44,068 nucleotides of DNA from Hydrurus foetidus (taxonomy: Eukaryota): NCBI GenBank assembly GCA_900617105.1, contig UYFQ01000235.1, positions 1-44,068 of the forward strand. Direction: 5' to 3'. Below the pieces are notes generated by a model. That model was not told the origin of the DNA and did not search any database. It saw only the letters and a list, made by a program, of their open reading frames with translations. Shown here piece by piece: positions 14,960-42,139 of the stretch; positions within the stretch are counted from its first letter, which is position 1; the number at the start of each line of letters is the position of its first letter. The translations under genes were made by a program, and so were the position numbers.

Positions 14960-15260
14960 CTCTGGAGCGGCTAGGAGCAAAGGCCGCTGACCGGTGCCGG
15001 TCCCTAAAGGGACGGCTGCGGAGGGGGAGATGTCTGGCAACAGGACGGGGACGATGACGATGACAGCGTTGGACTGACAAGCATCGGGAATTAGTTTCCC
15101 CAACTATCATCGCGTCATATCAGTTTTTCAAATAATTATTTAGTAGTTTTTTCAAATCATCAGCTTAGCATGCATGCTCGGAATGGACACGCTTTGTTGA
15201 GAGTGTTCTCTCACAACCTTTTGATCAGCCTTAGTCCATTCAGTCTAATATATTTTGTTA
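14960..15260 (+). repeat. Split direct repeat A1 (first ~32 bp removed by the Copia G insertion)
   Basis: Near-identical to 21447-21747; ends at the gag ATG (15260). Confidence 0.92.
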
Positions 15261-16881
15261 TGTCCAATACCGCCTCTTCCGTTCAAACTGGCGACGTGGT
15301 GATCCCAGCCTACCAGGCGGCTACCGGTGCATTGGTCCGTGCCTTGGAGAACGTAGTTTTGATCGTGGCGGGCCACACCGATGACAACGGCGAGCAGTAT
15401 GCGATGCAGATGGCCTTATCGGTACCGGCGGCAGATGTTCCGGCCAATGCGATTGTGGTAATCCCGCTGGACGCACCCAAGGCGGACGAGGTGTTTGATT
15501 TCACCTTCATCGCGTCCTGAAAGTCTATGTACTTTCAGGTTCACGAGAAACCGCAAACTTGGATGACATATGGTCATTGTGCTAATTTCTCGGCGGGTAC
15601 CGTTGATCGGCCGATCTCGATCGGAACGCTACTTAAGTTCCCTTCAATGGGTCACTACCTAGTAGCTCAACCACGTTTGTTGCAGGCGGTGCGTGCGTCG
15701 CTAGAGCCTGTGGGAGAGTGTGCGACGAGGGGGGAGTCAGCAAAGCGTCCTTGTCTTCGCCCACTGGAGGGGGGGGTGAGCAGGCGGAAGACACGACGGG
15801 CAAAACAAAAGGTATGTCTATCGTAGACTTAGACGGAGGAGAACACCCTACACGCAATAAGACGGATTTGCACTTACGTGAGAGGCAATTATGGTTCACT
15901 TACCGCGTTATGGATGCGGCCAAGCAGTGTTATAGTATCAGATCCTACGTTAGGTTGCAGCCGGAGTACTATCGAGGGATGCTGTTTGAGCAGGGGGACA
16001 CGCAAACCATCGATAGGCACCCCGCCTTTATCTCCTGCGGCCTTATCAACCGTATCGAGAAACTACCGGTTCTCGGCGAGAACGGTAAATTCAAACTGCT
16101 ACTTGTCGGTTCAGTCCTGACGGACAACAGTGAACCCACGCTGCGTCTGGAGGACTTCATTTCTGGGGAGAAAATTTCGAGCAGGTCGTCGCCATGCCCA
16201 TCCAACAACGCGGGCTTGGTGACGGTGCTCAAGAACGTGCAAATGGTCTTGCAAACGTGTTTCTCGGACGTGTTTGGGAAGGCTCTGGAATCCTTCATCG
16301 ATAAGCTGGAAGGGGTATGCAGACCGATGGAGCTGGTGCCGGCGGATTTTTTAAAGCATTCCGTCGAGTTGAGCCTCAAGAAGTGGTTTCGAGAGGTGTC
16401 AACGGTGAGAGGCTCAGACCTGCAGGCTGGCCTCTCATTCAAGACTGTAGAATTGTGCTCGGCGTTCCTTACCGGATTGTTTGACAAGCTGGCCGTGGAT
16501 CTCTCGAATCACCCTTTCATGGTGATGAGAGACGCGTATTTTCGTCTGCGTATACGGCCCGCGACAATTTCTTGGATGGATAAAACACCAGCAAAGAAGG
16601 AGGCAACGGGCGTGAAAGCGGAGGGGCCGGCGACCACTACCGTTACTCCGTCCAAAGACAAGAAGGAGGCGAACTCGAGAATATGCGTTGGCCATCTAGG
16701 TCAGTTGCTTGGAGCCGTAAATAAAGGCGGTCGAACCTACGCGTGTAAGTTCGGAAATGACTGTACTTATCGGCATATCACCGTAGAGGACAAGTCGAAG
16801 CAGCGATTGCTTGACATTGTCGGTGCGCTGACGGCTGTTCCTCGAGCTGATCTGACGAAGGCGGTTATCAAGCGGTCCTGA
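15260..16881 (+). pseudogene. YR-element ORF1 (gag-like) with C-terminal Cys/His finger; one in-frame TGA and one frameshift
   Basis: Pieces 15260-15520, 15527-15826 and 15718-16881 align to the continuous ORF of copy 2 (23219-24171); motif CVGH...CKFGNDCTYRH. Confidence 0.82.
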
Positions 16882-16912
16882 CTTCCGGAAGCGGTGCTGT
16901 CTGCCGACACAG

Positions 16913-17337
16913 GTGTGTACTGATTTACGTCAGAATATTAGTCGGGTCGATCATTTGATCGGCAGCCTGGTGCAACCTCATCTGTTTTGCGTGTTGACGA
17001 TGAGTGTTTGTGGCAGTGCTGTGTCAGCGGCCTCTCGCGATTATCACGGGGCTGCTACCGAGAGTAGGCAGATCAACTGGTTGTTGACTGTCTTGATAAC
17101 ACTGACGCATGCGGTCGCGTGTTGACGATCAGCGAAAGCGGGGTTCCAGGGGTGTCTGGACCCCCCGCATGCGGTTTGAGTGATGCATATCGTCGCATGA
17201 TACCCATGTTCTGGGCTGTGCTTATCATGCGACCGTATCATCGGGCATTACGCTGACGCACCCGAGTGCAATGCGATGCCTTCAGTTTATCTTTGTATGT
17301 GCGGAGACTCACTCTTTGACCTTGTTGTATTATACAG
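16913..17337 (+). other. Predicted spliceosomal intron (425 nt) between gag and RT, containing structured RNA
   Basis: ACAG|GTGTGT donor, CTCAC branch-like motif, T-rich tract, TACAG| acceptor; same phase and signals in copy 2 (39394-39825). Confidence 0.62.
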
Positions 17338-19525
17338 TCATGGAGAGCACGAGGCATGGCACGGCACTCCGTCCGACCCAGCGAGAGTCGAGACCGGAAG
17401 TGGCAGGAGAACTTGGGAAATATAAGGACCTCGGTTACAGCGAGTCTGCGCCAGTGATCGGGTCCTGGATCGAAGCGTGCTTTCCGGGGGACTCATCTAC
17501 AAGTAAAGCCGGGATAGAGGAGCTCATAGCGGAGGCAGCGGAAGCCGCGCGAAGTGACTTCGGTGTCGACGCCGCCAATGAATGGGCAAACGGGTACACT
17601 TTTCCTCCAGAGTTCGTGGCAAGCGACGTCCAGTGCTTGCACAGCTGGACTTTCGGAGCATGGTGCAGCGGCGTTTGAAGATATTATCAAAGGACCGTCT
17701 TAGCCGGACGAGTGTCGCGTCCCTCAGTCCGGACAACCCCGAGTTAGAACGCATGCTGGATTTAGCCGAGGGTATGAGGGTGGCCCTACCGGAGGGGTTC
17801 ACCCCTATCGGCCTTCAGCCTCGCCAACCACTGCGTACGTCTTACGAGACCGTGTCGAGCGCCGTCAACAAGCTGCTGGGTGCAGTAATAGAGCAACGAT
17901 TGGCATTTATACTCCCCCTTGAATTAGCTCAAGCCCACGTCCCCAACTTCCATTTGTGCAAAGCGCACTGGACCACCAAGAAGGGGAAGGCGTCAGGACG
18001 CCCCTTAGGGGATTTGAGCAACGTAGACGGCACCCCGCTTAACACGGACGCCACAGCCGACGCCGCAACTGCATTCTATGGACCGATCACGCATCCAACC
18101 ATAGAAGACATCGCGATCATGGTCCACCAGTACTGGAAGGAAGCCTCAGCGCGTGACTCGTCGCTTCGGTATGAGGATCTCCGCGTGTGGAAGATGGACC
18201 TCAAGGGAGCATATACCCTCCTGTCGTTCCGAGCCGAGTACGTCGGGTTGTTGGGGATGCTGCTCACGGACGATCTCGTTTATTTTCAGCTCGCCGGTAT
18301 TTTTGGCTGGTCTGGCACACCAGCGGCATACCAAGTGGTCACGCGAGCGATCGCATGGGAGCTCAGGGCCAGGCTCCGCAGTCGCACCGTCATGTACGTA
18401 GGTGACATCATCGGCATCGGATTCAAGATGGACATCGCGGCCGACCTTGCCCTCACCAGGAGCATATGCACGACTCTGCTCGGATCCAACGCCGTCGCAG
18501 ATGACAAGACCGAAGTCAGCCGGCGCCTGGATGTGATAGGGTATATCATAGATTTAGATACCGGTAGAGTGCTGATAAATAAGAAAAATTTCTTAGCAGC
18601 ACTCAACGGTTTTCTTAATGTGGATACCTCGGCACGAGTTAACCTCAGGACTGCGCAGCGCCTCGCCTCCTGGAGCACGCGTTACGGTAAAATATGCCGG
18701 GTCATGCGGCCGTTCTGCAGCGCCCTATACCGGTTAATGTGGGGCTGGACGGACCCTCACGCGCTTTTTAGCCTGTCGTCGGAGGCGATCGTGGCGATTC
18801 AGTGTTGGCGGGCGATGCTCTGCCTGGTGCGGCATAGAGAGTCTGAGTTCACCCGCTCAATTGCGTCATTCGCGCCAGAGACCCCGACGGTTATGGTCGA
18901 GTTCGACTCGTCGCTGAGCGGAGGCGGTCTTATATGGTACAGCAGAGTCAGCGGCGCAGAGGTGGCAATGGGTGTCGGTGCAGCTGATCTCCTATTTCTC
19001 GGTTTTGGTGAAGACTTATCGTTCCAGAATTTATCTGAGTTCCTTGGAGCAATCTTAGCTATTCTCGGGCAAGTTGCCCTTGGATACCAGGGGAGGAGTG
19101 TGGCCCTCAGGGGTGACAGCGTCACAGCACTGACGTGGGCCATAACGGAAAGACCAAGGGGCGAGAGGGTGACGAAAGCCGCGACGGTGTTCTCACTGCT
19201 CTGCATCGCGGCCGGCGTGGACGTGAAGGAGGTTACTCACATCCCAGGCACGGAAAACAACAAGTGCGACAGGCTCTCCAGGAGGGGCCGTGCACCGCCC
19301 ATGTCAATTATCGAGGAGGCGGAAACGATGGGAGTGCGGGGCGTCTGCGTGGTTGAAATCGATGGCGATGAAGATATCATCGCCATTCTCAAGTTGTGCG
19401 ACCCGAGATGCGAACTGAAGTCTGAACAGGAGTTCATAGGATTCTGGTCCGCCGCAAGGAACACCATTGATTCCTTCTTATGGCGCCACGTACAGTCAAG
19501 GGAGTCAGCGCGTCTGCATCAATAA
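17338..19525 (+). pseudogene. YR-element RT/RNase H, copy 1 (inactive)
   Basis: KMDLKGAY, GIFGW, YVGD (YVDD in copy 2), RH motifs FDSS, NLSE, GDS, CDRLSR; a ~7-nt deletion near 17638 relative to copy 2 causes a frameshift. Confidence 0.9.
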
Positions 19526-19628
19526 GAGCAACATCAACTCTGACCGGCTTGTCCTGACGTTGTCGGCAGCGGTGAGCGCCTCGGGCAAGGAGGGTTGTAG
19601 GCGTCGCCATGCAGTGACACCTGCTGTT

Positions 19629-19752
19629 GGCAGCGGTGGGCGCCGTGCACGAGGAGTATCATCGGACCCGCTATGCATTGGCCCCTTCAACGCGGGCAGC
19701 GGTGAGCGACGTGCATCAGGGGTGTCATCAACCCTGCCCTGCAATGGCCCCC
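19629..19752 (+). repeat. Imperfect 66-bp tandem duplication between RT/RH and YR
   Basis: GGCAGCGGTG...ATTGGCCCC and GGCAGCGGTG...AATGGCCCC; reads as a 22-aa repeat in ORF 19467-19772. Confidence 0.75.
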
Positions 19753-19878
19753 ACCGCGACCCCGCGCACTGAGTGATGTCCTTCCTGTGTAGAAAAATGT
19801 TAAGGAGCGCCAACAGACCCTGCTCAGCCCATACTCGACTACCACACTCCTCCACTTGCTCAATTCTCGATCTTCCTA

Positions 19879-21105
19879 GTGCAGCTAGTTCTTGTAACCA
19901 AGTCGTCGTCTCAATGTTGCTCTAACAGGAGTCGGAGGGATAGTGTCAGCGCAGAGCCGGCAGGAGCTGTCGGGAGGTCGGTGTTACCGAACACCAGCCG
20001 AGTGTACGATAAGTATTGGGAGCACTGGATTTCCTTTTTGAAGAGCGAGGTGAATGAGGACGATCCCTTCGTGGGGAGCGCAGGGGAGGAAGAGAAGGCG
20101 TCCCTCGTTGGAATCATGATGCTGAGGAGGCACGAGCAGGGCTTGCGAGGCAAGCAGGCCACTGCGTTCACGGCATCTATCCGTATGCATTTCGTGCAGC
20201 AGGGAGTTTCGACCAATTTCCTGAACTCGCCCGTGATCGCGACAGCGAGGGCGGCATGCCAGCCCAAGCCTGAGGAGCTCCGGGAGAGGAAGGACAGCGG
20301 TGCGGTGACCAGTGTCAAACTCCCGATCTGCGAGAGCATGTTGGTCGGCATGAAGGCCAGGATGTGGACCGGGCGCAGGTGGACAGGCGTGGACATGCGG
20401 GACCGGATGACCTATCTCGGCTGTATGTGGGCTTTTGAGATGGGGGCCCGAGTGTCGGAGTACACTGCCACTGAGCCCAGAGGAGTCGACCACTGTGTTC
20501 GCGTGGATGACCTAGTATTCATCGGTGAGTCTCCCACCGGGACCAGGACCCTTTGCGGTAGTCAGCTTACCGGTGTCGGCACCGCGGGTGGTGTAGTCGG
20601 TAGCCTCAACATTATTGAATGCCGGGCAACCGCGGTGTCCACTAAGGGGAAGAAGGTGGTCAAGCCGAAGATCGTCGGTCGCCGTTCGGTAGAGGAGAGC
20701 GGTTTCCTCGATGATCTCCTGGATTTTATGGCGCACAGCGGGAGCACTGGGAAAGACGAGCTGTTCAGCTTCCGATGCGAGGACAACACGCAGGTTAAGC
20801 TGCGGTCAAGGGACGTACGGGAAGCACTCAAGAGGGAGTGTGAAGAGAACGGCCTGGACTCCAATTACTTCAGCTCACACTCCTTGCGTAAGGGGGCGAT
20901 TACAGAGATGCGTTCGCTAGGGGCGTCGGAGGACGACAGGAGGGATAGAGGCAATCATGCGCCGAACTCTCAGGTGATGAACATCACTTACGATTACGGC
21001 GCGGGGATCGGCCCACTCGCTTCCAATAGTTTGGTCGGCGGGCACAAGCCCACTGTTGAAGACGTGAGGAGACTGCTACCACCGGCGAGGAGAGTTGAGG
21101 AATAA
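19879..21105 (+). CDS. Tyrosine recombinase (true start unknown, probably spliced)
   Basis: N-terminal TSRVYDKYW..W..F segment, GARVSE (Arg), STK (Lys), HSLRKG (HxxR), GNH and C-terminal Tyr (ITYD). Confidence 0.9.
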   Translation: MQLVLVTKSSSQCCSNRSRRDSVSAEPAGAVGRSVLPNTSRVYDKYWEHWISFLKSEVNEDDPFVGSAGEEEKASLVGIMMLRRHEQGLRGKQATAFTASIRMHFVQQGVSTNFLNSPVIATARAACQPKPEELRERKDSGAVTSVKLPICESMLVGMKARMWTGRRWTGVDMRDRMTYLGCMWAFEMGARVSEYTATEPRGVDHCVRVDDLVFIGESPTGTRTLCGSQLTGVGTAGGVVGSLNIIECRATAVSTKGKKVVKPKIVGRRSVEESGFLDDLLDFMAHSGSTGKDELFSFRCEDNTQVKLRSRDVREALKRECEENGLDSNYFSSHSLRKGAITEMRSLGASEDDRRDRGNHAPNSQVMNITYDYGAGIGPLASNSLVGGHKPTVEDVRRLLPPARRVEE

Positions 21106-21159: not shown

Positions 21160-21414
21160 GTGAAGGGAATTCTGACCCAAGGTCCGCCCCCAGTACCCGA
21201 GATTGGTTCGAAAGTGAGAACAGCAGGGGAGGCGGACGGGTGAGCCCAGGCGCGCAGGCGCAGCCATTATGTAAGATAACATCGCTTCTATTCCCATCGC
21301 GCTTTACTCGACTTAAGCATCTAGGGTGTAGCGGAGAGTGCAGAAGTAAACGGCGAGAGGTCGCACTTGGGACGACTCCCCCTAAAGGGACACACCTCTG
21401 AGAGCGGAATAGAA
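21160..21414 (+). repeat. Split direct repeat B1 (255 bp)
   Basis: Near-identical to 21830-22084. Confidence 0.95.
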
Positions 21415-21747
21415 TTAAAGGATACCGGACGGTAGTATGGGGGGTTCTCTGGAGCGGCTAGGAGCAAAGGCCGCTGACCGGTGCCGGTCCCTAAAGGGAC
21501 GGCTGCGGAGGGGGAGATGTCGGGCAACGGAACGGGGACGATAACGATGACAGCGTTGGACTGACAAGCATCGGGAATTAGTTCCCCCAACTATCATCGC
21601 GTCATATCAGTTTTTCAAATAATTATTTAGTAGTTTTTTCAAATCATCAGCTTAGCATGCATGCTCGGAATGGACACGCTTTGTTGAGAGTGTTCTCTCA
21701 CAACCTTTTGATCAGCCTTAGTCCATTCAGTCTAATATATTTTGTTA
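21415..21747 (+). repeat. Split direct repeat A2
   Basis: Matches 14960-15260 and, more distantly, the start of copy 2 at 22882 (TTAAAGGA...). Confidence 0.93.
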
Positions 21748-21829
21748 CCCCGTGGCCAACCAATCCTACGTTGTTATAATGATAGTTCATATGTTTGGTA
21801 ATGTTATCTGACCACTTGCGTGCCAGTTA

Positions 21830-22084
21830 GTGAAGGGAATTCTGACCCAAGGTCCGCCCCCAGTACCCGAGATTAGTTCGAAAGTGAGAACAGCAGGGGA
21901 GGCGGACGGGTGAGCCCAGGCGCACAGGTGCAGCCATTATGTAAGATAACATCGCTTCTATTCCCATCGCGCTTTACTCGACTTAAGCATCTAGGGTGTA
22001 GCGGAGAGCGCAGAAGTAAACGGCGAGAGGTCGCACTTGGGACGACTCCCCCTAAAGGGACACACCTCTGAGAGCGGAATAGAA
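21830..22084 (+). repeat. Split direct repeat B2 (right terminus of copy 1)
   Basis: Near-identical to 21160-21414. Confidence 0.95.
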
Positions 22085-22881: not shown

Positions 22882-23218
22882 TTAAAGGACACCAGACGGT
22901 AGTATGGGTTCTCTGGAGCGGCTAGGAGCAAGGACCACTGACCGCTGCCAGTCCCTATAGGGACGGCTGGGGAGGGGGAGAAGCCGGGGGGGGGGGGACA
23001 AGACGGGGAACGATGACGATGTCAGCGTTGGATTGACTCGCAGCGGGAACGAGTCCCCCTTGTTATCGTTGCGTCACACTAGTTTTTGAACTAATTATTT
23101 AGCATATTTTCGAATTATGAATTTTGCATGTCTGCGCGTAATCGACGCGTTCGAGTGAGAGTATTATCTCACAATTTTTTGATCAGCCTTAGTCTATCTT
23201 GTCTAGCATATTTGATCA

Positions 23219-24171
23219 ATGTCTACGAGTGCCTCTTTCGGTGAAACCAGTGGTGTGGTGATTCCAGCGTACCCGCCGGTCACAGGTGCGATGGTGCGTG
23301 CTTTGGAACACGCAGCGGCGATCGTGGCAGGATACTCTGACGATGAGGGCGAGCAGTTCGCGATGCAGATGGTGTTCTCTATCCCAGCTGCGGACGTTCC
23401 GGCCAACTCGGTGATTGTCATTCCTCTGGACACACCGAAGACGGACGAGGTGCTCAACTTCACGTTCCTGGCATCGTGCAAGTCCATGTACTTCCAGGTC
23501 CACGAGAAACCTCAGACCCGGATGACTTACTGTCACTGCGCCAACTTCTCGGCGGGTACCGTGGATCGACCCATCCCGATTGGAGGTCTAGTCAGGTTTT
23601 CCTCGATGGGTCACTATCTGGTTGCTCAACCACGCTTGCTGCACGCCCTGCATGTTTCATTGGGGCCTGCGGGCGGGGATGCGGCAGGGGTAGAGTCAGT
23701 GAAGCGTCCCTGTATTCACCCACTGGCAGGAGGGGGTGAGCAGGCTGAAGACACGGCCGGTAGAACAAAATTTATGTCCATCGTAGATTTAGATGGAGGC
23801 GAGCACCCAACACGAAACAAGGCGGAACTTCACCAACGTGAGAGAGATTTGCGGTTAACGTACCGCATTATGGATACGGCTAAACAGTGCTGTAGTATTC
23901 GATCCGACGTCACCCTCCAGCCGGACGACTATCGAGGAATGCTATTTGAACAGGGGGACGCACAGGCCGCCGACAGGCATCCTGCGTTCTTATTTTGCAG
24001 CCTTATGAACCGTATTGAGAATCTACCGGTTCTCGGCGAGATCGGTAAACTCACACTGCTGCTTGTTAGTTCAGTCCTCACTGATAACGGTGCTCCGACT
24101 TTGTGCTTGGAAGATTTCGTCTCAGGGGAGAAAATCGCGTCCAAGCCGTCGCCATGCCCATCCAACAACGC
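23219..24171 (+). pseudogene. YR-element copy 2 ORF1, 5' part, interrupted by Gypsy C
   Basis: ORF 23219-24214 is homologous to copy 1 up to PCPSNNA, then runs into the LTR. Confidence 0.88.
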
Positions 24172-24389
24172 TGTAGTCCAAATGAAGCTGGGAAGGTGCA
24201 GAAAGGTAGTTTAGGCTTACAACGAGAAGAGGGTGGGTGAGCTTGCAGAGGTGTAAAACTCTGCATGCAAAGCGTTGCAAGGTAGACTAACAAGCTACGA
24301 GATGTCAGAAGGACTCTCAGCCACATGTACAGACGGCTATACGGTACTACGTAGGGTAGGAATGTGGTACTAAATCCTGTACCATCACA
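24172..24389 (-). repeat. 3' LTR of Gypsy C (218 bp)
   Basis: Direct repeat of 38468-38685 with 2 differences seen; TG...CA termini. Confidence 0.95.
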
Positions 24390-24619
24390 TTACCCCCACT
24401 TACTCCTTTCCGAAATGACCTTAGTCTCGCTTCTCTCTTTTGAACTACTTAATTGTAACTAAGACTAGAAAAAAAATTGAACTAACATCAAAGTAGAAAA
24501 ATACATCAAGAGTGTTAATAATGATGCAAATAACTAGACTAAAAGAGAGTTTGGGACTAGGTCCTCTGCGTGAGTGTCCGTGCATCCGACAGCAGCGGTC
24601 TTGACCGTGTGAGAGCATG

Positions 24620-26594
24620 TCAGGTTTCACTGACTAAAACCGTAAAACCCACGTAGGGCAAAAAAATGGCTAAATTTTGAGCAAAATCTCGCACCGGCAT
24701 ATCTTCGCCACGCAGCTTGTGCGGAACTAGCGCCTTCAGTCCGGCGTTCTTGAGGTAGGTGTGCAGCTGGTCCGTGAGTCTCAGAGCACTCCATGGCTCC
24801 CATGAGTTGTGTTCCTCGCTATAATTAAGCCACTTGACGAGGAAGGTCAACGTGGAGACCTTTCTGGTGTTGCCCTTGTGGGCTGTGATCGCCTCGATAT
24901 AGAATTCCATATAGTCGCGTTGGGCTGAGTCCATGGGTTCGATCCTGGCCGGATCGAAGAGGAACATCTTGAGTTTTGAAGCGTGAATTCTTTTAGTCTT
25001 CTTATAGACGATGTTAAGGAGTACATACTCCGAATCGCGATGGGAAATTACCTCCATCGGACCTTGCCAGCGGGTGTGTAGTCGCGTAGGGGGGCCTGTA
25101 GCGTACTGCGCTAGTACGTGCGAACCGACGGGGAAAACGGTTGGATCCGGCTGATCCGTTAAACGCTGTGCGGCGTGTTCTTGCGCCATTTCTTGGACTG
25201 TCCTGTGCGTCGTATCCTGAGCGTTAATCATGTCAGCCATGATGCGTGAGCCCGGAGTCTTTGATGGAAGGGCTTGTTGAAAGGGCGTGAGGATGCCTCT
25301 GTTCAGATCCAAGCGGTTGCCGAAGAGCAGATTACCCGGTGACACCCCCGTGGAGCCATGAACTGGGCTGTTCATGATCCGTTGGACAAAGGGGAGGCAA
25401 AGCTTGTACTGGTCCATCTCTAGTGTCTCGAACACAAACGAGCGCAAGTGGCGGTTAACGTCCTTGTTGACCCGCTCCACGATGGAGTTCTCCTCCTTTG
25501 AATAGGCCAGTGTGAGGTTGTGCGGTGTTCCAACCGCCAAGAGAAACTTCTCTATGAGTTCGTTTGCAAAATGCGGTCCGCGATCGGAGCGTATCAGATT
25601 GGGAGAACCGAAACGACCGAAGTGTTCCAGGAGACAGCGGCATGCCGATTCCGCCGTGCTGTCCTTGCAGTGGAACAGCTCTGTCCATCTTGAAAATGAG
25701 TCCACGATGACTAGCACGTGTGTGCCGTCGGGGAAGGGACCGATGAAGTCGATATTGAGGACATCGAAAAGTATCTCGCCTGCCGTCGTGAACTTATGTA
25801 CGTTTATTGGAATGCGTACTGCACTCATCTTCTGGCAGCACGGACAGTACCGTACGAATAACCGGACGTGGTTGCGCATGTACGGCCAAGACCGGCCCAT
25901 GAGACCTAGCTTATGCATCGTTCGGTCTACGCCGCCGTGACCGACGCGGAAGTTGTGGGATTGCTCCATCCACTCCGATTCCTCCTCTGAAGCGAGTGGG
26001 CAGGTGGTTACTGCTGCTACAATAAAACCTGGGGCGTCCATGACCCTAGGGGTGTAATCCATGGCGAGTTCCATAAGGTTGGGACACAAGCGTGACAGGG
26101 TGTCTGCCCATTTGTTCTGGGAGTCTGGCACGAAGTGAATCTTGAAATCTAGTTCCTGCATCGCTATGGACCAGCGGGTGACCATAGAGTTTGGGTTGTT
26201 GGTCATATACGTCAGATTTAGGTGATCTGTGTGTATAGTGAACACCCGGTCGCGGAGGAGAGTGTCCATCTGCTGGCAGCAATGGAAGATTGCGTATGCC
26301 TCCTTCTGTATCGTTGACCAACGAGATTGGGTGGCGTTGAAAGACTTGCTGACGAATGATATCGGTCGCCCGCCAAATGTCGTCAACAATCTGGAATAAT
26401 ACACCGCCTATACCGTAGTCGGAGGCGTCCGTATACAGCCGTATAGGTGCGTCACTGTCATCCAGGAAGTGCATGAGCGGGCAATGCGATATGGCTTTAC
26501 ATATAGCTTGGAACGTGTCGGAACTCCCCTGTGTCCACACCAGTGGTGAGTTTTTCTTGCCCTTGTGGTCAATCATATCTTGTAGTGGTTTTAC
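24620..26594 (-). pseudogene. pol: Gypsy C pol 3' part: RNase H, integrase, chromodomain
   Basis: ORFs 26046-26618 (TDASDYG) and 24620-26404 (QKEAYA, GHGG, CPCC, IDFIGP, SDRG, WQGP, FLVKWLNY..NSWEP). Confidence 0.93.
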
Positions 26595-27102
26595 TGTCAG
26601 TCCAGCATATTCATGCATGATCTGTTAGCATAGTTTCATCTGTAGATTAGCATTCACATGTCACAAGTAGTGTAGCGCTTCCTCACCCAAAACACCGCCA
26701 TACACTGTTGTGTACATACGCTCATCGTTCTTCTAGCGATATCCCCCTTCGGGGCCATCACCAAGCATCCGGTTTTTCACCACCAAGCATCCGGATTTCC
26801 ACCAGGTATCCGGTTTCCACCAAGCATCCGATTTCATGAGCAGCGAGGGTTCCGCCCATTGCTCAATCGCCAACTTGAATATTCGCTGAATATGTTTCCA
26901 CTTCGGCGATCACCATTTCATGCACAATGGATGCTTTGCTTTGCTTCTTTGATGGTTGTCTTCTCTGATATCATCGCCAGTTGTTTTACTACTTGATCGT
27001 TGTAAGTAAACACGTCTTCCGAGACCACTTCCATCAGCCAGTCTTTCCTTTGCGCTTCCGCAGCCAACAGGTAGCTCGCTTCACTCCACAGTCTGACTCA
27101 CA
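26595..27102 (+). repeat. 5' LTR of Copia E (508 bp) with four internal ACCAAGCATCCG-like repeats (~26760-26832)
   Basis: No differences from 33936-34443 seen by eye; TG...CA termini. Confidence 0.96.
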
Positions 27103-27114
27103 TGGTAGCGATTG
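27103..27114 (+). promoter_or_regulatory. Primer binding site TGGTAGCGATTG (probably tRNA-iMet)
   Basis: Immediately after the LTR, starts with TGG; the same 12-mer follows the Copia F LTR at 42140; tRNA identity inferred from the TGGTAGC start. Confidence 0.8.
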
Positions 27115-27192
27115 CATAGAAAGTTCAGCAATCATCGATATAGTATCAATATATCAACGGTATCTCATCACAACAGATATCTCAAGTCGGCC

Positions 27193-28971
27193 ATGATGCT
27201 ACGATCGTCCGACAACACAGACCAAAACAACGAGGAATACCATGACCCAACTGGGCTAGAGACTCCCAGCCGCGCCCAGCTGCCGCGCATGCTCTCCATG
27301 ACCCTTGCAGAGTTCGATGAACGTGTCGCCGAGGCCATAAGAGCCCAAACTCAAAATTTGGTCACCAGCTCGACGGCAAATCGGCAAAATCCCTCGACAC
27401 CAAACCGACCTCGACGAGGCTCCCATGCAGAGGAAGCCACGCCACCGCGCCAAACTTCGGCAGAAGTTTCAGCAAGTGGGCTATCATATAATGCCGCGTT
27501 GGAATCCGTTTTGGAGCTCAAACGGCTAAAACTCGATCTCGTTCTGACGACCTCTTCAGAAATGGATAGCATCAAGCAAAACCAGATCACCACAACGACT
27601 GTGGGATCTAACAAGCGCTTCAAAGCTCTTGACAACATGCTCCATGTCGTTGGACTCTACCCAATGGCGATGGGCACGCGTCGCGAGCCAATCCCAACGA
27701 GGCACAACCCATCAGGATACTCGGAGCCTACAACGTCGGAGAATCTTGACGGAACCTTCAATTATGTACCTGCCGACGATGTTACACGATGGGCCCACGA
27801 CAAGAAACGTTTATACAACGTCATGTTGAACGCTTTCAGCGAGTCTACCCACTATTTATGTGCCGATTCCTTTACCTCTCGCGATGGGATCGCTATTTAT
27901 AAACGTATGCACAAGCACTACTACGGACATACTGAAGCAGACATCAACCGACTTAGGCGGCTTCTACAAAACTTCAAGGGCTCCACGGCTACTTGTTTTC
28001 AAGAGGATTTAGTGAGGTTTACAACGTTGATGACAGAATTCGAGTATGCCCAGGCCAGACCGAGCACCGAGCAGGAGCGCCTTCAATTCCTTCACAACGC
28101 CTTCATGAACGACCACCGCCCCAACACCAAATCCTACTTTATGTCCTGCCATAGCAACATGCTCACCTATCACCAAACTTTGGAGAGAGCTGTTGTCTAT
28201 TCCGAGTATGCCCTCCTCCAAGACAAGCCGGTCAAGATAGCTGCCTTGTCCACTACCCCTGAAGCCTGCCGCAAGTTCCTCGCTGGTACCTGCCTTCTCG
28301 GTAACAAGTGCAAGTACTATCATGCTCCTGCTAAGCCACCGGCAGCGACACCTCCCTCTGGCAAAGCACATCCTCCTGCCCCACCTGGATCCGCTCCAGT
28401 CACGGACAAGAACCGGATCAAAGCCAAGGGCAAGTACCCTCCCAAGCAGACCTTCCCAGTGACGAGTATCGATGGCCGCGTCCCTTACCTCAAGAGCAAC
28501 ATCCCCATGAAGCTTCTTACCAACGGACCCAACATCAACCCTGAGGACGGATGGCAGAACAACACGCTTTTGGATAACGCCGAACCCTCCGGGTATGTGC
28601 GCTTCTCCCTCAACATGTTCCGAGTCACCGACACTGACCCAGCACCTCCTCCGGATACACCGTCTAATCCTCCTCTCGAGTTAGCACTTCCGCCAGGACT
28701 CCCTCCATCAGGACACTCACCACTGCGATCTCCAACTCGTCCATCTTCTAATGCCGCCTCTCCCTTAATGCTCCGACCGTACGTACGTTCCGAACATACT
28801 CAACCAGCATCTACCCCAGTACTCCTGGGTACCCCCGACTCCTGTCGCCCCAGAGAATGCTACAGCATGGGACACGCCGCGCCATCAGAACATCTCCTCG
28901 CCAACATATGGGACCCCAATGCAAGAAGAAGTCGATGCCTTCACACGTACCTGGGCCTTCCTCACCAATGA
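27193..28971 (+). CDS. gag: Copia E Gag with CCCH zinc finger; frameshifts into the downstream polyprotein
   Basis: First ATG after the PBS in ORF 27112-28971; DG..Y..HY..G capsid-like segment; CRKFLAGTCLLGNKCKYYH. Confidence 0.78.
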   Translation: MMLRSSDNTDQNNEEYHDPTGLETPSRAQLPRMLSMTLAEFDERVAEAIRAQTQNLVTSSTANRQNPSTPNRPRRGSHAEEATPPRQTSAEVSASGLSYNAALESVLELKRLKLDLVLTTSSEMDSIKQNQITTTTVGSNKRFKALDNMLHVVGLYPMAMGTRREPIPTRHNPSGYSEPTTSENLDGTFNYVPADDVTRWAHDKKRLYNVMLNAFSESTHYLCADSFTSRDGIAIYKRMHKHYYGHTEADINRLRRLLQNFKGSTATCFQEDLVRFTTLMTEFEYAQARPSTEQERLQFLHNAFMNDHRPNTKSYFMSCHSNMLTYHQTLERAVVYSEYALLQDKPVKIAALSTTPEACRKFLAGTCLLGNKCKYYHAPAKPPAATPPSGKAHPPAPPGSAPVTDKNRIKAKGKYPPKQTFPVTSIDGRVPYLKSNIPMKLLTNGPNINPEDGWQNNTLLDNAEPSGYVRFSLNMFRVTDTDPAPPPDTPSNPPLELALPPGLPPSGHSPLRSPTRPSSNAASPLMLRPYVRSEHTQPASTPVLLGTPDSCRPRECYSMGHAAPSEHLLANIWDPNARRSRCLHTYLGLPHQ

Positions 28972-31900
28972 CGAAGTCACCTCCTCCACTGTCTTCCAGG
29001 GTATCTGCCGACAATGCTCCACGTACATCCTTCAGTACTACACTGTGGTCCACCACCGCATTCATCAGCAGCCCCTCTCAGCAAATGACTTCATCATCTA
29101 TGTGAACCGTCCCGCCTTGCCTGGATCCCCTACACCGGCGCCTCATATATACCTCGCTATTTTCGGCTGGGTATCCCCAACCACCCTCAGCAACTGCCGC
29201 GCTGATGTCAGAGACGGATACTCTCGGTATATGAACCTCATCCACAAGATTGCTCGCAACCTGCTGCTCGCCAACACTGAGCCGCCGACTCCACCCAATC
29301 TTGAGTATGACCCAGGGCACTACCGCACCTTCAATCCAACCTTGATTGAAGACATCACCACCTATCAGTCCACAGTCGGGAACATTTTCTTTTACTTCCT
29401 CGTCCACACTGCTCTGTACCTCGACGACCAGATCAGTCCAGACCACATGGCGATATTTGAAAGTGTCCTCATCTATGACTGTGCCTCCTGGGTCGCAGCA
29501 CAGCTTGCCCGATATGCCAATGCACCCGGCAACTCCTGGCACAACATTCCCACTCTTCGCATACTCATGCTCACGGAAGTTGATGCACACGTTGACGGTC
29601 TTATGACACGAACTGGATCGAACGAGTCATTCATCCAAGCCATTCGAGTCGTAATCCAGCATGTCCTACCCGACGCATTTCATGTTACACCCAACAGCCT
29701 CTTCGTCGGACCTGATCCTGTTGAACCCACCGAGTCACACTACCGCACAGTATCTCTCGCCAGGGACCTCGCAGCATCTACAGCCCCACAGAACATACGC
29801 CAAAGATACACTTTGCGGAACTATGAGAGCGATTCAGAATCCTCTGTCGAAGACTCCATCTGTTTCCTCCCGTACAACATGTCCTGTCCAACACATAACA
29901 TCAGTGGCCCTCGATGCGCCCTCTCTTATGTCAACTACCTACATGGAGCCGTCACACGTCTCATGGTCCCTCCATCAGACGCATCCCCATGGGTACCACC
30001 GGACGCATCCATGGAACTTCAGCGGTACAACGCCAGGAAGCGCGGCATCGCATTCCAGAAAGACCAGGCTCAAGGGGACACTAAGCGTCAAGACACTACC
30101 TCGTCCTCGTCAGCATCCTCTTCCGCCTCACCTTCTGCATCGATTCCCACTACGCTTCCGGAGTTCAATACTCCGTTACCACCTGTTCCATCGACACCCT
30201 CTGACCCTCTTACCGGGTCACTCAAACGTTGGCAAGCCGCGCAACCACTTGCATCCGACTCGCCTTTCACTATGCCTCGTGCCCAGCGCCACCGAATGAC
30301 TCCACCAGTCGGATCTCAACGCTCGACAAATGTCCGACATGCCTTCAACAGTACTCGCCCTCCGCTTGCATCAGCTCGCCCTCCTGCACCATCCGGCGGT
30401 ACCTCCGACTCCAAGCTCAACACATTCGTCGTCAAGTCCCAACATGAGAGACTCAACTCGTTCCACGTTCCCGACAAGGTCATCTTCGACTCTGGTGCTT
30501 CACGCTCTGGCACCGGCCGCTCCCAACGTCTTACCAGCATTGAACCTGTCAGCACATCCGTCACAGTCACCCCTGCATTCGGTCCGTCCATGACACCAAC
30601 ACACCAAGGCAGCCTCGGACCGTTGGAGCTTAGCACCCTCCTTCTCCCTGCACTAGGCGACAGCACCCTTGTCTCTGTCTCCCAGTTCTGCGCTGGCGGT
30701 GTCACCAACGACCACTTCATCGGCATCTTCACTCATAAAGACTTCCGCTTCTATGAGACTGCATCAGCCCTTCCCTACATTGCACTGGTAGCTCAGCATG
30801 GAAAGGAGGTCACCCGTGGAACCGTCCAAGACGGCCTCTACGTGGAGACTCCCTACTGACCAACCACTCGGGAGAGTCTTTTGGTCACACACTATACTCC
30901 CGCTTCACTGTACGACCACGTGCATCAAGCCACAGGCCACCCCGGTCTTCCAGGCATGGCATGGCACCGCGATCATTCCCTCAATGCTCGCTTCACCACC
31001 AAAGATGCACACACCTCCCGTCCGGTCTGTCCTGGATGCGCCCATGGCGCCATGCGTCAAGCATCCACAGACTATCGTCGCATTCACAGAGACACAACTA
31101 CCCTCGTCGGCCAGCAGTTCTCCTTGGATGCCTATACCCACTCGACTCCATCATTCCGTAACTACCGTTACACTCACATCCTCACCGACCTCGCGTCGGG
31201 ACAATACTATCCTGTATATACAAAGACCGGTCCGCCTCTGAACTCTGTGCCCGCATTGCAGCCTTCTTCGACCTAACCCCCAATGGAACCACAATACCCC
31301 TGGGGTTGATCGCTTCATCCGGCATGACCCAGAGGCCAACTACCGATCTGAAGAATTTACTGCGCTTTGCGCCCGATACCGATACCGACTTGAGCACACT
31401 GCACCTCGTGACAAACATGCCAACGGCATCGCTGAGCGAGCAGTCGGCATTGTAGCTCTCAAGACCAACGTTGCCATGATAACCCCTGTTCCGCATGTGC
31501 CAATGAAGTTCTGGGACCTTGCAATGTCCTATGCATGTGTTACTCATTCCTTTAACCTTAACAAGCGTATTGGTACTTCTCCGTATCACTTCACTTCTGG
31601 GCAACACGTGGACATCAGGATGCTTCGACCATTCTGGGCACCCTGCTATGTCAAGCACGCACCCAAAGATCAGAAAAGTAAAGTTGGGTCACCTCGTGCC
31701 TACCGTGCTCGGTTCGTTGGTTATAGTTTTACATCTATACTAATACCACAATATTTAGTATTAGAAATACTACCCAAGAACACCTACGGTACTGTTCGAG
31801 TCAGTAAGGATGTCATCTTCGACATGCACAACAACTTCAAGCATGACTCAGATGCACACTTCCCTACCGACGAGGCCTTCGCCCTCATCCCGTCCCTCTA

Positions 31901-33728
31901 CTATACTGATAATGATAATGACCCTATTGTGGTGCCTGAGCGAGTCGACCTACCCGGCCTCCCCTCACCTGCACCCCTTATCGACCCCGACTATATAACC
32001 CCTGTACCTGAGACAGAGCACTCAGTCAACGATGACATGATATACTGGTCCACCTACACCAGTTCTTCCACATGCTTCCCTGTTCACCTCTTCCGTGTCC
32101 TGCACTACAACATAGCAGTCCAAATCAAGGATCCCTACATCCCCAAAGACTTCTGGACCGCAATGCAGTACCCAGAGTGGGAACAGGCCATCAACACTGA
32201 GCGCACAAAGTTTGAAGTCAACAACTGCTTCCGGTCTGTCCCCTTCACCGGCCAGCACCTCGTACCAATGATGTGGCTCTTCAGTATCAAGACTGACGGC
32301 ACCAAGAAGGCCCGCCTCGTAGGTCGTGGTGATCTCATGATACCCTGGGTCGACTTCGACCCCTACGCAGTATACTGCGGTAATGTCAATGCGTCATCGA
32401 TCAAGATTGCACTCGTCATAGCCGCAACCTACAAATTATCCATGCGGGGAGGAGATTTAGTAGGCGCCTACTTAATCACACTCGCTAACCCCGACTTTCC
32501 CGTTCACATCAAGACACCTCAAGGTTACACCACACCTTTTGGCACATGCTTTCAAGCCATTGGCAACCTCTACGGTTTTCCACCAGCAGGCCAGAATTTC
32601 TCAAAGGAATTCGACAAATGTGTACGCGAATGTGGATACGAAAACACACCGTGGGACTTAAAGTTCTTCTTTAAGTGGGTCCAAGGTCAACCCCTGATAC
32701 TGATAGCACACTCAGACGACTTCAGATGGTTCGGACCACTTGCACTCATTAGCGAATGGGATCTCCTCATCGCTACATTCAACTCCCACAAGTATGAAGT
32801 CACCGACGCGACCTCCAAAGAGTTCGTCGGCATCCGCATTACATGCGATGACAACTTCAACTACTACATGGATCAGTCACGCATGATCACATCCATCGTA
32901 TCGGAGGCCAACCTTGCTGGCGCCGCCGATGAGCATCTACCATATCCACCTTCTGGTGAGAGTCTGTCCAAGGCGGACAACTCTACCGATCTCGATAGGC
33001 ACATGTATAATAAGTATCCCTACCGACGGGTAGTTGGTCAACTTATGTACGGAATGGTACACACATTGATTACAATCATGTACGCTCTCAACATACTATC
33101 AAGATATAGTAACAGTCCAGGTGCACGACACATCAAGTTCCTTAAGCACTTACTTCGATATGTCAAGTACGCCAAGATGGATAGACTGAAATTCACCACA
33201 CACGACGGTCCCACCGACATCGCTACGATGACCAGTCTACTGCAGTTGAAGTTCCAATGCGACGCCGACCTCGCCGGTAACAAAGACAACCGTCACTCCC
33301 AGACCTCCTACATTGGCTACCTCGCCGACAATGTCATCTGCTGGAAGAGTACCGACCAAGGCAGCATCTCATCATCAACTGCGGAATCCGAAATCAAGGC
33401 AGTTAATCACGCACTAAAATCCGATGTCATTCCCCTCCGGGGCATACTAAACCACATGGGATGGACACAAGCTCCTACAGTCATCGAAGAAGACAATTCT
33501 GCTTGTGTTGATGCTTCAAATCATACACACATGACCAAGAACCTTCGTCACATTGACCTGAGCGAAAACTACTTTAAGGACAAAGTCGCCGATGGTACCT
33601 GTGTCATTGTTAAAATCCCTTCGGGCGAAAACAACTCAGACATAGGTACGAAAAGAGTTCCACTACCACTTTTCGAATACCTAACGCACAGGCTCGTTGA
33701 CAAGTCTTTACGAACTAATATTAAATAA
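28919..33728 (+). pseudogene. pol: Copia E pol: uncharacterised region, protease, integrase, RT, RNase H (frameshifted)
   Basis: IFDSGAS (PR), HQATGH..CPGC (HHCC), FSLD..RHD..AERAV (INT), KARLVGRG, NLYG, HSDD (RT), CDADLAG, SSTAESE, EDNSAC, RHID, DIGTK (RH). Confidence 0.93.
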
Positions 33729-33935
33729 CATAAATACTTAATATCCATATTTCTAACATACGTATTAATTTTACTATCTTATATGAGTGCACGCATATAT
33801 TATAACTAACTTTTTACACTTTTTGCCAAATCTCTCGTACGGGGAGTACATCCTCAGTACGGGGAGTATATATACACATATCATTCATTTCGATACTCTC
33901 AATAACACGTTCAGCTACATCTTCACTACGGGGAG

Positions 33936-34443
33936 TGTCAGTCCAGCATATTCATGCATGATCTGTTAGCATAGTTTCATCTGTAGATTAGCATTCACAT
34001 GTCACAAGTAGTGTAGCGCTTCCTCACCCAAAACACCGCCATACACTGTTGTGTACATACGCTCATCGTTCTTCTAGCGATATCCCCCTTCGGGGCCATC
34101 ACCAAGCATCCGGTTTTTCACCACCAAGCATCCGGATTTCCACCAGGTATCCGGTTTCCACCAAGCATCCGATTTCATGAGCAGCGAGGGTTCCGCCCAT
34201 TGCTCAATCGCCAACTTGAATATTCGCTGAATATGTTTCCACTTCGGCGATCACCATTTCATGCACAATGGATGCTTTGCTTTGCTTCTTTGATGGTTGT
34301 CTTCTCTGATATCATCGCCAGTTGTTTTACTACTTGATCGTTGTAAGTAAACACGTCTTCCGAGACCACTTCCATCAGCCAGTCTTTCCTTTGCGCTTCC
34401 GCAGCCAACAGGTAGCTCGCTTCACTCCACAGTCTGACTCACA
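33936..34443 (+). repeat. 3' LTR of Copia E
   Basis: Direct repeat of 26595-27102, preceded by PPT ACGGGGAG. Confidence 0.96.
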
Positions 34444-34448
34444 TTTAC

Positions 34449-38685: not shown

Positions 38686-38689
38686 ACGC

Positions 38690-39362
38690 GGGCCTGGTGA
38701 CGGCGTTGAAGAACTTGCAAATGGTGATGCAAGTCTGTTTCTCGGACGTCTTCGGGAAAGCGTTGGAGTCATTCGTTGACAAGCTGGAGGGTGCTACTAG
38801 GCCCATGGAGCTCGTAGCCTCAGATTTTCTGTAACATTCCGTCCAGTTCAACATCAGACGATTCTTTCGTGAAGTCTCAACCGTGAAAGGGACTGATCTG
38901 CAGGCTGGCCAGTCGTTTAAAACTCCAGAGCTCTGTGCAGCCTACCTCACAACTCTCTTCTATAAGCTGGCGGAGGAGCTCTCGAATCATCCCATGATGG
39001 TGATGAGAGAGGCGCATTTTCGGCTACGGGCTATACGTCCTCTGGTGTCGTTTTCCTCGGAGAAGACGCCTGCGAAGAAGGAGGCAGCTTTAGTTAGAGT
39101 GGAGAAACCGGCGGCATCGGTAGTTACCCCTTCCGACGACAAGAAGGAGGTTAACGTGAGGCCTTGCGTCGGACATTTGGGACACTTACGGGGTGCGGTA
39201 AATAAGGATGGCCGACCATATACGTGCAAATTCGGAAAGGACTGTGCATTCCGGCACCTTACGATAGAGGATAAATCGAAGCAAAGGTTGCTCGACATCG
39301 TCGGCTCATTGACCGCGATTCCTCGAGCGGATCTGACGCGGGCTGTCGTTAAACGCTCCTGA
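38690..39362 (+). pseudogene. YR-element copy 2 ORF1, 3' part
   Basis: Resumes exactly after the TSD; homologous to copy 1 up to ...VVKRS*; one in-frame TAA near 38832. Confidence 0.88.
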
Positions 39363-39393
39363 CGTCCGGAAGCGGTGTCGCCTGCCAACACAG

Positions 39394-39825
39394 GTTCGTA
39401 CCAACTGATATAAGAGCATTGCTCGGGTCGATCCTCTAATCGGCAGCCTGTTGCGTACTCATCTGTTTGCGTGTTGACGATGAGTTTGCGTGATAGTGCT
39501 GTGTCATCGGCCCTTCCCGAATACTATGGGGGCCGCTGCCGAGAAGTAGACAGTGGCACTGGTTGTTGCCTGTCTTGTGTTTAACACTGACGCATGCGGT
39601 CGCGTATGAACGATCAGCGATAACGGGGTTCCAGGGGTGTCTGGACCCTCCGCATGCGGTATGAATGAATGATGCATATCGTCGCATGATACCCGTGTTC
39701 TGGGCTGTGTTTATCATGCGACCGTATCATCGGGCATTACGCTAATGCACTTGAGTGCCATGCGATGCCTGCAGTTTGATCCATAGCGTATGGAGACTCA
39801 CCTCCGATCTCATTGTTATTTGCAG
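39394..39825 (+). other. Predicted spliceosomal intron (432 nt), homologous to 16913-17337
   Basis: ACAG|GTTCGT donor, CTCAC motif, T-rich tract, TGCAG| acceptor, phase 1. Confidence 0.62.
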
Positions 39826-41226
39826 TTGTGGAGTGCACGAGGCATGTTAAGGCACTGAGTCCGACCCAGCGATAGTCTGGACCGGGGGTCACGTGCAGTT
39901 CGGTGGGAAGAGGTGGAGTCGATCCGGGCGAAGCGGAGCCCATGATAGGCTCGTGGATAGAAGCGTGCTTCCCAGGAAGCGCACCCACGAGCAAGACTGG
40001 GATACAGGAGTTGATAGCGGAGGCTGCAGAAGCCGCACGTAACGACTTCGGAGCGGACGCAGCCAATGAGTGCGCCGACGGATATACTTTCCCACCAGAG
40101 CTCCTAGCCAGCAACATCCGCTGCCTTAGGGCGGCCCAGCTCGACTTCAGGAGTATGGTGGAGCGGCGGTTGAAGATCCTGTCAAAGGACCGCTTGAGTC
40201 GGAAGAGCGTGACCTCTCTTAGCCCCGACAATCCGGAGATAGCGTTAATGGAAGATCTAGTTGACGGAATGAGGGTCGCCATACCTGAAGGTTTCGTCCC
40301 CAACGGTCATCAGCCCCGGTCGCCGCTGCGCGCTTCGTACGAGACGGTGTCGACCGCCGTAAAGAAGATGCTAGGCGCCGTGATAGAGCAACGCTTAGCG
40401 TTCATATTGCCATTGAATTTGGCCCAAGCCCATGTCCCTAACCTCCACTTGTGCAAAGCGCACTGGACGACAAAGAAAGGGAAGGCGTCAGGACACCCTT
40501 TGGGGGATCTAAGTAATGTGGACGGGACACCGCTCAACACGGACGCCACAGCCGAAGCCGCCACCGCATACTATGGACCCATTACACACCCAACCATAGA
40601 AGACATAGCCATGATGGTGGACCGATTCTGGAGGGATGCCTCTGCACGCGACCCCTCGCTTAGGCATGAAGACCTTCGGCTATGGAAGATGGATCTTAAG
40701 GGGGCGTATACCCTCCTATCGTTCCGACCCCAGTACGTCGGACTGTTCGGAATGTTGCTTACCGACGATCTTGTTTATCTCCAACTCGCCGGCATCTTCG
40801 GCTGGTCAGGCACTCCTGCAGCCTTCCAAGTGGTAAGGCGAGCGATCGCCTGGGAGCTCCGATCAAGACTCCATAGCCGCACCGTTATGTATGTGGATGA
40901 CATAATCGGTATCGGTTTCAAGACAGATATTGCTGCCGATCTTGCCTTGACACGGAGCATATGCACTAAGCTGCTTGGACCCGGCGCCGTCGTAGACGAA
41001 AAGACGGAAGTAAGCCGGCGCTTAGATGTCATAGGCTATGTCATTGATTTAGATACCGGTCGAGTGCTGATAAGTAAGAAGAATTTCTTAACAGCACTTA
41101 ACGGTTTTCTGAATGCGGACACAACGGAGCGGATTAACATGAGGACCGCGCAGCGTCTCGCATCGTGGAGCACGCGTTACGGCAAGATATGCCGGGTGAT
41201 TCGACCGTTTTGCAGCGCTCTATACC
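39826..41226 (+). pseudogene. YR-element copy 2 RT, truncated by Copia F
   Basis: ORF 39903-41327 with KMDLKGAY, GIFGW, YVDD; homology to copy 1 stops at PFCSALY; in-frame TAG at 39873-39875. Confidence 0.92.
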
Positions 41227-42139
41227 TGTCAGACCACTTGATTCTATCAAGATATGTCTGTAGTAATATAGTTGCAAATATAGTTTCAAATATATACATG
41301 TACGTTATGCGACACGTACGTACGTAAGTACACATGCAGATATGATGACATGCACACGTACACACGTACTTACACATGTTAGTGCATACTCATTTATGCA
41401 TACGTACACACATGTACTTACACATGTACGTACATAGTCAATATGTACGTACGTACGTACGCACGCATATAGCATAGCGTACACTTGTATGGTCACGCAC
41501 ACACGTACATACGTACGTGCACATGCTAGTACAAATTATTATATGCATACGTACACACACGTACTTACACATGTATGTACATATATAATATGTACGTATG
41601 TACGATCGCCAATAGCGTAGTACATAGATGTATAGGCGTACATACGTAAGTACCACTGTACTTACGCATGTACGTTCTTACACATACACATGCATACGTA
41701 CTCCTATAATATCGCCATATAGCAGTTAGTACTCACGCATGTACGTTCATATACATATACACGCATACGTACCCCTGTACTATCGCCATGTATCAGTTAG
41801 TACGAACCCTCTGACCTCACGCAAATGAACGTTCGCCTTTCATGATTCTTCAGTATCGCCAAAACACTTCGTTACTATAAGCATTCATGCAACGTTCCTC
41901 AAGCACATGCTATGAACAACACATCTCGCTGTGAACTTTGTCTCAAGGTAGTTTCACTGTCATGAACTGTTCTGATAGCTCTTTTGCGTGGCTATCTGTA
42001 AACTCTAATCAGAATTTAATACGTTGTACTTCACAGCTTCGTCTACTCGATAGCTCACTGAATTGAGACAGTAGCCTGCAGCTGCTTCTCCACCTTCGCT
42101 GCGAACGCTAGAAGGTGACATCTTGTATTTAGTCTTACA
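41227..42139 (+). repeat. 5' LTR of Copia F (913 bp) with a ~500-bp low-complexity TACGTAC/ACACATG tract (~41295-41800)
   Basis: Bounded by the break in the host RT and by PBS TGGTAGCGATTG at 42140-42151; partner LTR not in the window. Confidence 0.78.

Follow-up and report, generated by a model that had tools for sequence, protein, structure and literature searches.

Ngaro elements, a group of tyrosine-recombinase retrotransposons, have been described from Cafeteria burkhardae (PMC8547959), Ectocarpus (PMC12477816), fungi (PMC3783388), and Xenopus (PMC9210276). The accessible parts of these papers give them split direct repeats in the arrangement A1-[ORFs]-B1A2B2, open reading frames (ORFs) in the order gag-like, reverse transcriptase-RNase H (RT-RNase H), and tyrosine recombinase (YR), and no methyltransferase. 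Here, we analyze an element of the same repeats and order which is present in two copies on a 44,068-nucleotide (nt) contig of Hydrurus foetidus (GCA_900617105.1, UYFQ01000235.1, forward strand). This whole stretch is called the window below. In the published elements, the ORFs are separate, overlapping, or frameshifted, and the accessible text mentions neither readthrough nor splicing, whereas in the window they do not overlap and are accompanied by splice signals and a leaky-type stop. How RT and YR are expressed in such retrotransposons is not worked out in the literature searched, where they are drawn as three ORFs.

Expression from spliced RNA is known for the pol of foamy viruses, the gag of Drosophila copia, and the env of retroviruses. 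As proposed here for the window element, splicing governs how much enzyme is made relative to structural protein, and the unspliced RNA is the genome; in retroviruses, the rule is that the packaging signal lies within the intron. To our knowledge, none of these cases needs both a splice and a readthrough event for one protein. The long terminal repeat (LTR) retrotransposon Tca2 of Candida albicans is a Copia-type element with an integrase.

Tca2 likewise has gag-UGA-pol in one frame, and no intron is reported in the accessible text (PMC2194720). Gammaretroviruses (gag-UAG-pol) and viruses with alphavirus-type UGA readthrough have the same single stop between structural gene and polymerase, in the context UAG-G or UGA-C, and they show raised nucleotide conservation and a predicted stem behind the stop (PMC3159437, as far as accessible). 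In the window element, conservation is likewise raised there, and a stem is predicted with modest support. The viral junctions have no intron; in the window, by contrast, the frame and the stem would arise only after splicing, and the context is UGA-CUU or UGA-CGU (PMC3159437).

For the window element, we propose that RT is made as a full-length Gag-RT protein by splicing out a 425-nt intron and reading through the UGA of gag, with or without some use of a second donor inside gag (D1). Judged from sequence, we give this reading a probability of roughly 0.55. The ancestor would have carried gag-stop-RT in one frame and made RT via readthrough. In the window's clade, an intron would then have entered the linker, apparently within the loop of a hairpin that follows the stop, and splicing would restore the reading frame and the hairpin together. 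Gag-RT would result when the intron, which starts 31 nt behind the gag stop, is removed and the UGA is then read through, while unspliced RNA would yield Gag only and serve as the genome. A folded core within the intron would act as a packaging or export signal through which the intron survives copying, and the recombinase would come from a second splice between D1 and a phase-1 acceptor at 19928. No paper found reports that DIRS/Ngaro elements use readthrough or that their gag, RT, or YR is spliced, subscription reviews, Repbase, and bioRxiv supplements lying outside the search. The first-pass annotation of this DNA did not recognize a scheme of splicing plus readthrough from described elements.

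The gag-RT junction in the two copies

Both junctions agree to the nucleotide with those first read from the letters. In copy 1, the TGA (16879-16881) is followed by 31 nt, a GT at 16913, and an AG ending at 17337, which delimit 425 nt. In copy 2, the TGA (39360-39362) is followed by 31 nt, a GT at 39394, and an AG ending at 39825, which delimit 432 nt. In both, the spliced translation runs in frame from gag through LPEAVLSADT or RPEAVSPANT into the N-terminus of RT, and CTCAC is present approximately 25-30 nt 5' of the AG. GT donor, branch site, and YAG acceptor, as expected of a spliceosomal intron, are kept across the copies, and removal of the 425-nt piece by splicing is predicted from these signals. 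The 20 sequencing runs listed include none of RNA, and none of the 15 joints listed, of 44 in four contig runs of DNA or unknown kind, links 16912 to 17338; neither outcome counts for or against splicing.

Donors were scored with a generic donor matrix (threshold 4). Across 15262-19930 of copy 1 (4.7 kb), only 15812 (D1) and 16913 (D2) score at least 4, and 39394 is the sole such donor in the 3' half of copy 2 (2.5 kb). The copies agree at 29/34 positions over stop and exon and at 6/8 over the donor, but at 11/22 just inside the intron. High-depth contigs of the family (runs X4 and X10), which together with the two window copies are the basis for the conservation of D2, cover 16196-17006 with five differences and no gaps, none at the stop, exon, or donor. 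The spacer holds 3-8 stops in every frame of both copies, which rules out frameshifting through it.

The two post-stop peptides are similar, but this similarity is not the coding signature that had been suggested. All five differences between the copies in this exon alter amino acids, and the third positions are identical in 10 of 10 codons compared with 109 of 224 in gag and 191 of 343 in RT (approximately 50%). The exon is free of indels, whereas the intron has 19 gap columns. As every difference changes an amino acid while the third positions are fixed, the constraint appears to act at the RNA level and not on coding.

After splicing, pairing is predicted between this exon and the first part of the RT exon. 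In the models, the spliced sequences of both copies form a common long hairpin, which has the joint in its loop and 25 pairs across the joint, and three of the five differences preserve this pairing. The expected number of cross-joint pairs is 21.0, compared with a mean of 10.4 for 26 other windows, one of which reaches this value (2/35 and 0/21 at other widths). The models lend modest support to a hairpin across the splice joint. The best predicted partner of the exon (16882-16912) is the intron stretch 17003-17068, with a summed duplex of -66 versus -57 for the RT exon start, and an alternative fold of these two segments is possible in unspliced RNA.

The core of the intron folds better than its shuffles (z = -3.2 and -3.1 for the two copies), and 6 two-sided and 15 one-sided changes keep pairing among the 124 pairs of a structure that was itself predicted from these two copies. 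Rfam gave no match in the intron and one chance-level match outside it, and a profile of both introns found nothing in 63 distant loci. By analogy with retroviruses, the core is a candidate packaging or export signal, which would account for the copies keeping the intron.

Candidate readthrough layout and reading frames in relatives

The comparison set consists of these 63 loci, all distant (31-54% in the best segment) and none from the window's clade. A junction is missing or too broken in 22 and visible in 41: 35 with an in-frame single stop, L008 with a spacer, and five others. In these 35 of 63 loci, gag and RT lie in one frame and are split by one TGA or TAG; among them, L005 and L013 have a later frameshift, and in four loci the contig breaks off within fewer than 25 codons upstream. 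As in the window gag, the ORFs ahead of the stop finish with the Cys/His motif and a short helical tail.

The stop tally, which omits L024 and L040 (only 19 codons open upstream) as well as L009, L018, and L039, comprises 24 distinct junctions with TGA-C in nine, TGA-G in eight, TAG-G in seven, and TAA in none. TAA ends 8 of 25 RT ORFs compared with 0 of 24 junctions (Fisher p = 0.004, uncorrected for kinship). L014 has TGA-CGT, as copy 2, and L058 has TGA-CTT, as copy 1. Published readthrough contexts are UGA-CUA/CGG (type II) and UAG-G (type III) in the accessible text (PMC3159437), and five of the 24 carry the exact type II motif. As 3' structure, we looked for a stem approximately 7-12 nt behind the stop and for raised conservation. 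A hairpin behind the stop (z < -2) occurs in 7 of 23 relative junctions versus 15 of 300 control windows (p = 0.014, for a window picked after a 100-nt test had given p = 0.09).

The end of gag is fixed, as 120 of 123 gag proteins stop 34-35 amino acids (aa) past the zinc finger and none later. P0590, a distant gag (1 of 33 scored), runs far beyond the stop position with C-L-E-Q-Q-V-E-S-K-S-N-T-V-S-F, in which Cys-Leu occupies the place of the stop and a similar segment of 11 residues is present; this tail of one protein, seen as amino acids and not as DNA, is as expected of a mutated TGA-C followed by a frame-keeping 11-codon exon. No natural Gag-RT or Gag-YR fusion occurs among the proteins examined.

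In the RT tree (FastTree, 61 rows, 19 P proteins fewer, midpoint root without outgroup), the window's clade lies inside the elements with an in-frame stop, in a 98% SH-like (Shimodaira-Hasegawa-like) group with L005 and L037 (long branches), and adjoins L005, L037, L008, and L018. Because it nests among in-frame gag-stop-RT elements, the clade probably inherited readthrough from its ancestor and acquired the intron later. The gag of L008 (3200-3820) terminates with TAG-TAA, and an AT-rich spacer of approximately 380 nt, which ends in a pyrimidine tract and CAG, separates it from RT; possibly, this locus independently replaced readthrough by splicing or by a separate start of RT. An altered nuclear code was rejected, as TGA and TAG each occur once at the junction and also terminate RT ORFs. 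Viral collections yielded no loci. L001, L002, and L003 are eukaryote-type retroelements on short contigs of bacterial metagenome-assembled genomes, a placement that is likely binning contamination.

The first-pass annotation had also argued from the ATG of copy 1 and the GTG of copy 2 that RT is not initiated independently. This contrast is weak alone because both copies are dead; a stronger point is that RT homologues lack a fixed start. In 78 homologues, RT as gene-called begins 0 to 130 residues ahead of the first conserved Trp, with 48 different offsets. About 15 of 120 RT gene calls run upstream and by eye show T-H, T-N, or T-D and then pairs like A-G, T-G, L-G, or A-V, which read like a translated branch site and phase-1 YAG at the amino acid level. 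The proposed scheme would account for the erratic starts of these RT and YR genes in annotation pipelines.

The upstream donor and competing readings

D1 likely serves the recombinase family-wide in a splice that joins the N-terminal part of Gag to the recombinase (GagN-recombinase) and skips RT. Its amino acid motif K/R-G-[MTS]-[SF] is present in 83 of 85 gag proteins. The top donor is in phase 1 and 1000-1450 nt ahead of the stop (a range set post hoc) in 10 of 14 distant loci, whereas 200 codon shuffles gave 1.7 such loci on average and 5 at most; the D1-type donor and a phase-1 acceptor ahead of YR were noted in L001, L005, L011, L015, L019, L022, L026, L031, L038, and L043. The YR ORF has no fixed start. 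A phase-1 YAG precedes YR at 19928 of the window and, as judged by eye and with no null test, in almost all of the 25 loci inspected, L008 being ambiguous. Loss of D1 in the family of copy 2 was considered and discarded, as six of seven listed cluster members retain K-G-M-S. In L047 (846) and L049 (1338), the strongest gag donors are in phase 2 and phase 0, not in phase 1.

Three loci, L017 (3051-3130), L019 (3763-3870), and L016 (1984-2060), have RT and YR in one frame with one TAA, then a pyrimidine tract and a TAG acceptor; from this sequence, splicing looks likelier than readthrough at their RT-YR junction. Third ORFs of 960-1600 aa stand behind RT in L031 (6716-10255), L043 (4519-9315), and L039 (5039-7933). 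They have no tblastn match to the window YR and are perhaps recombinases with extra domains.

We favor splicing plus readthrough as the source of RT because it accounts for the preservation of TGA-C, for the presence of a second donor, for an exon free of indels, and for both the hairpin and the ancestry. The two-step control proposed earlier gains from the in-frame stop of the relatives, the position of the clade, and the conserved splice signals, and it loses from an in-frame bypass through D1 and from the missing coding signature. Other points also count against it. Only two copies of the window's clade were compared as DNA across the junction, and their UGA-CUU and UGA-CGU differ from the textbook UGA-CUA or UGA-CGG of type II. 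The spliced 100 nt fold with unremarkable energy (z = -0.6 in both copies), the cross-joint duplex comes only 113th among 1791 windows, equally good folds occur in 72 of 163 control joins, and part of the hairpin begins inside the ribosome footprint. In the sister group, L008 combines a tight TAG-TAA with a spacer ahead of RT; readthrough can therefore be abandoned once a spacer exists. The flanking sequence of Tca2 alone gave no readthrough in a yeast reporter test, according to the accessible text (PMC2194720), and the same layout can therefore conceal other mechanisms.

D1 scores above D2 (6.8 vs. 6.1 and 4.1) and joins the RT acceptor (17337/17338) in frame, bypassing the TGA. An upstream donor of this kind had been named as one way in which the scheme could fail; it exists in phase 1 at 15811/15812 and may be used with the RT acceptor. 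Without any readthrough, alternative splicing could join D1 to the acceptor of either RT (17337) or YR (19928), fusing a Gag of approximately 185 aa to either enzyme, with TGA-C simply inherited and D2 only trimming the Gag mRNA. The wide occurrence of the D1 motif and of D1-type top donors, the frame of the D1 joint at 17338, and the loss of the leaky stop beside a spacer in L008 are in favor of this arrangement. It gives no reason for the retention of D2 in both copies, for the kept TGA-C, for 31 nt that stay indel-free and in phase, or for the pairing across the joint; moreover, D2 is far nearer the acceptor (425 vs. 1526 nt). We hold it to be rather unlikely. As all four sites (D1, D2, RT acceptor, and YR acceptor) are in phase 1, some D1-to-RT splicing may run alongside readthrough; each model leaves one 1-in-3 phase coincidence unexplained unless both donors are used.

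An improbable alternative is that the spacer stays unspliced, or is spliced incidentally, and holds an internal ribosome entry site, a reinitiation signal, or an internal promoter, with RT starting from its own ATG or a near-cognate codon. The intron core, which is better conserved than coding DNA and folds well (z given above), would suit such a role, as would the ATG just 3' of the acceptor in copy 1 and some relatives and the minor promoter at the gag-pol junction of Tca2 (PMC2194720, accessible text). The RT start codon, however, is not conserved, the spacer has many upstream ATGs, and the pattern and phase of donor, branch site, and acceptor are kept. Least probable of all is a chance GT..AG pair in conserved non-coding RNA with RT made otherwise, e.g., by frameshifting or from other copies: the DNA comparison comprises two broken copies only and the phase would match by chance in 1 of 3 cases, but 4.7 kb contain just two strong donors, D2 among them, and the spacer stops exclude frameshifting.

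A wider form of splicing plus readthrough is put forward only tentatively. With its two donors and two acceptors, all in phase 1, and a leaky stop, the element could make Gag, Gag-RT, and GagN-recombinase from one transcript; the intron would have been gained in the loop of a readthrough hairpin, splicing would switch readthrough on, and an intron-borne packaging signal would ensure that only unspliced RNA is copied. If true, the added intron puts RT under two serial controls, a recoding signal is assembled by splicing, and the element shows how a retroelement gains and keeps an intron. The family offers junction coordinates at which RT by readthrough, YR by splicing, and the added intron of one clade can be tested.

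Identity and layout of the element

Table 1 Features of the element in the window
Feature	Position	Strand	Details
Split direct repeat A1, 5' end of copy 1	14960..15259	+	98% identical to 21447-21746
gag-like ORF1	15260..16881	+	C-terminal Cys/His zinc-finger-like motif, TGA end; early stop and frameshift here
Donor D1 inside gag (predicted YR donor, possible RT donor)	15809..15817	+	AAG/GTATGT, phase 1, cut 15811/15812
TGA-C at the end of gag, predicted readthrough site	16879..16882	+	Both copies, contexts of relatives
Post-stop exon	16882..16912	+	31 nt = 10 codons + 1 nt; nucleotide-level conservation
Predicted retained intron, 425 nt	16913..17337	+	D2 CAG/GTGTGT phase 1, branch-like ACTCAC ~17307-17312, acceptor ACAG
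Conserved structured intron core	17100..17290	+	89% identical between copies vs. 71-80% in coding regions
RT exon start	17338..17401	+	Predicted pairing with post-stop exon after splicing, joint in hairpin loop
RT-RNase H ORF2	17338..19525	+	No conserved start codon; frameshift near 17640 in copy 1
Predicted YR acceptor	19908..19928	+	CTCAAT ... CTAACAG, phase 1
Tyrosine recombinase ORF3 (YR)	19929..21105	+	Frameshift near its start in copy 1
Split direct repeats B1, A2, B2	21160..22084	+	B1 21160-21414, A2 21447-21746, B2 21830-22084; repeat families
Copy 2, 5' half: A repeat and 5' gag	22906..24170	+	D1 site decayed
Copy 2, 3' half: 3' gag, junction, truncated RT	38686..41227	+	TGA 39360-39362, intron 39394-39825

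The element fits an Ngaro-like tyrosine-recombinase retrotransposon of the DIRS order, an assignment by structural definition, with a tree of relatives from this analysis only. The split direct repeats stand in the order A1 ... B1 A2 B2, which is part of the Ngaro definition in the accessible text of PMC8547959 and PMC13465315; the structural definition is also given in PMC7192593. For RT-RNase H, the model of P0001, a relative, has a predicted local distance difference test score (pLDDT) of 89 and matches the RTs of Moloney murine leukemia virus, cauliflower mosaic virus, foamy virus, and Ty3 (best E 1.7e-13). Pfam RVT_1 matches 7 of 14 RT proteins, below the cut-off only, and a profile of RT against PDB sequences gave no match. 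YR, in place of a DDE integrase, lies 3' of RT on the same strand and matches the phage integrase family PF00589 with E 4e-4, which is under the curated cut-off; the H-x-x-R and Tyr motifs are visible in ORF3. No Pfam methyltransferase match was found in the RT and YR proteins scanned, where a highly divergent domain could escape. PAT-like and DIRS1-like identities, as defined in the accessible text of PMC7192593 and PMC4157794, were rejected, the former for lack of a methyltransferase domain and the latter for lack of this domain and of inverted repeats with an internal complementary region.

The family is large, with 272 RT, 49 gag, and 233 YR clusters among the candidates scored, and ORF1 has approximately 540 aa in intact relatives. 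Both window copies are broken: copy 1 by a stop and a frameshift in gag and by frameshifts in RT and YR, and copy 2, one element cut by nested LTR insertions, by stops, these insertions, and a 3' truncation. The insertion in its gag (24171-38685) is Gypsy-like and on the minus strand, with LTRs 24171-24389 and 38467-38685 that are 99% alike; nested inside it is a Copia-like element whose two identical LTRs start at 26595 and end at 34235, respectively (both labels by eye from ORF motifs). A further insertion in copy 2 contains a GTAC-rich tandem region and then a gag-like ORF (41228-41800 and 42200-44068). Between RT and YR of copy 1, three tandem repeats of approximately 64 nt occupy 19565-19751, each beginning GGCAGCGGTG.

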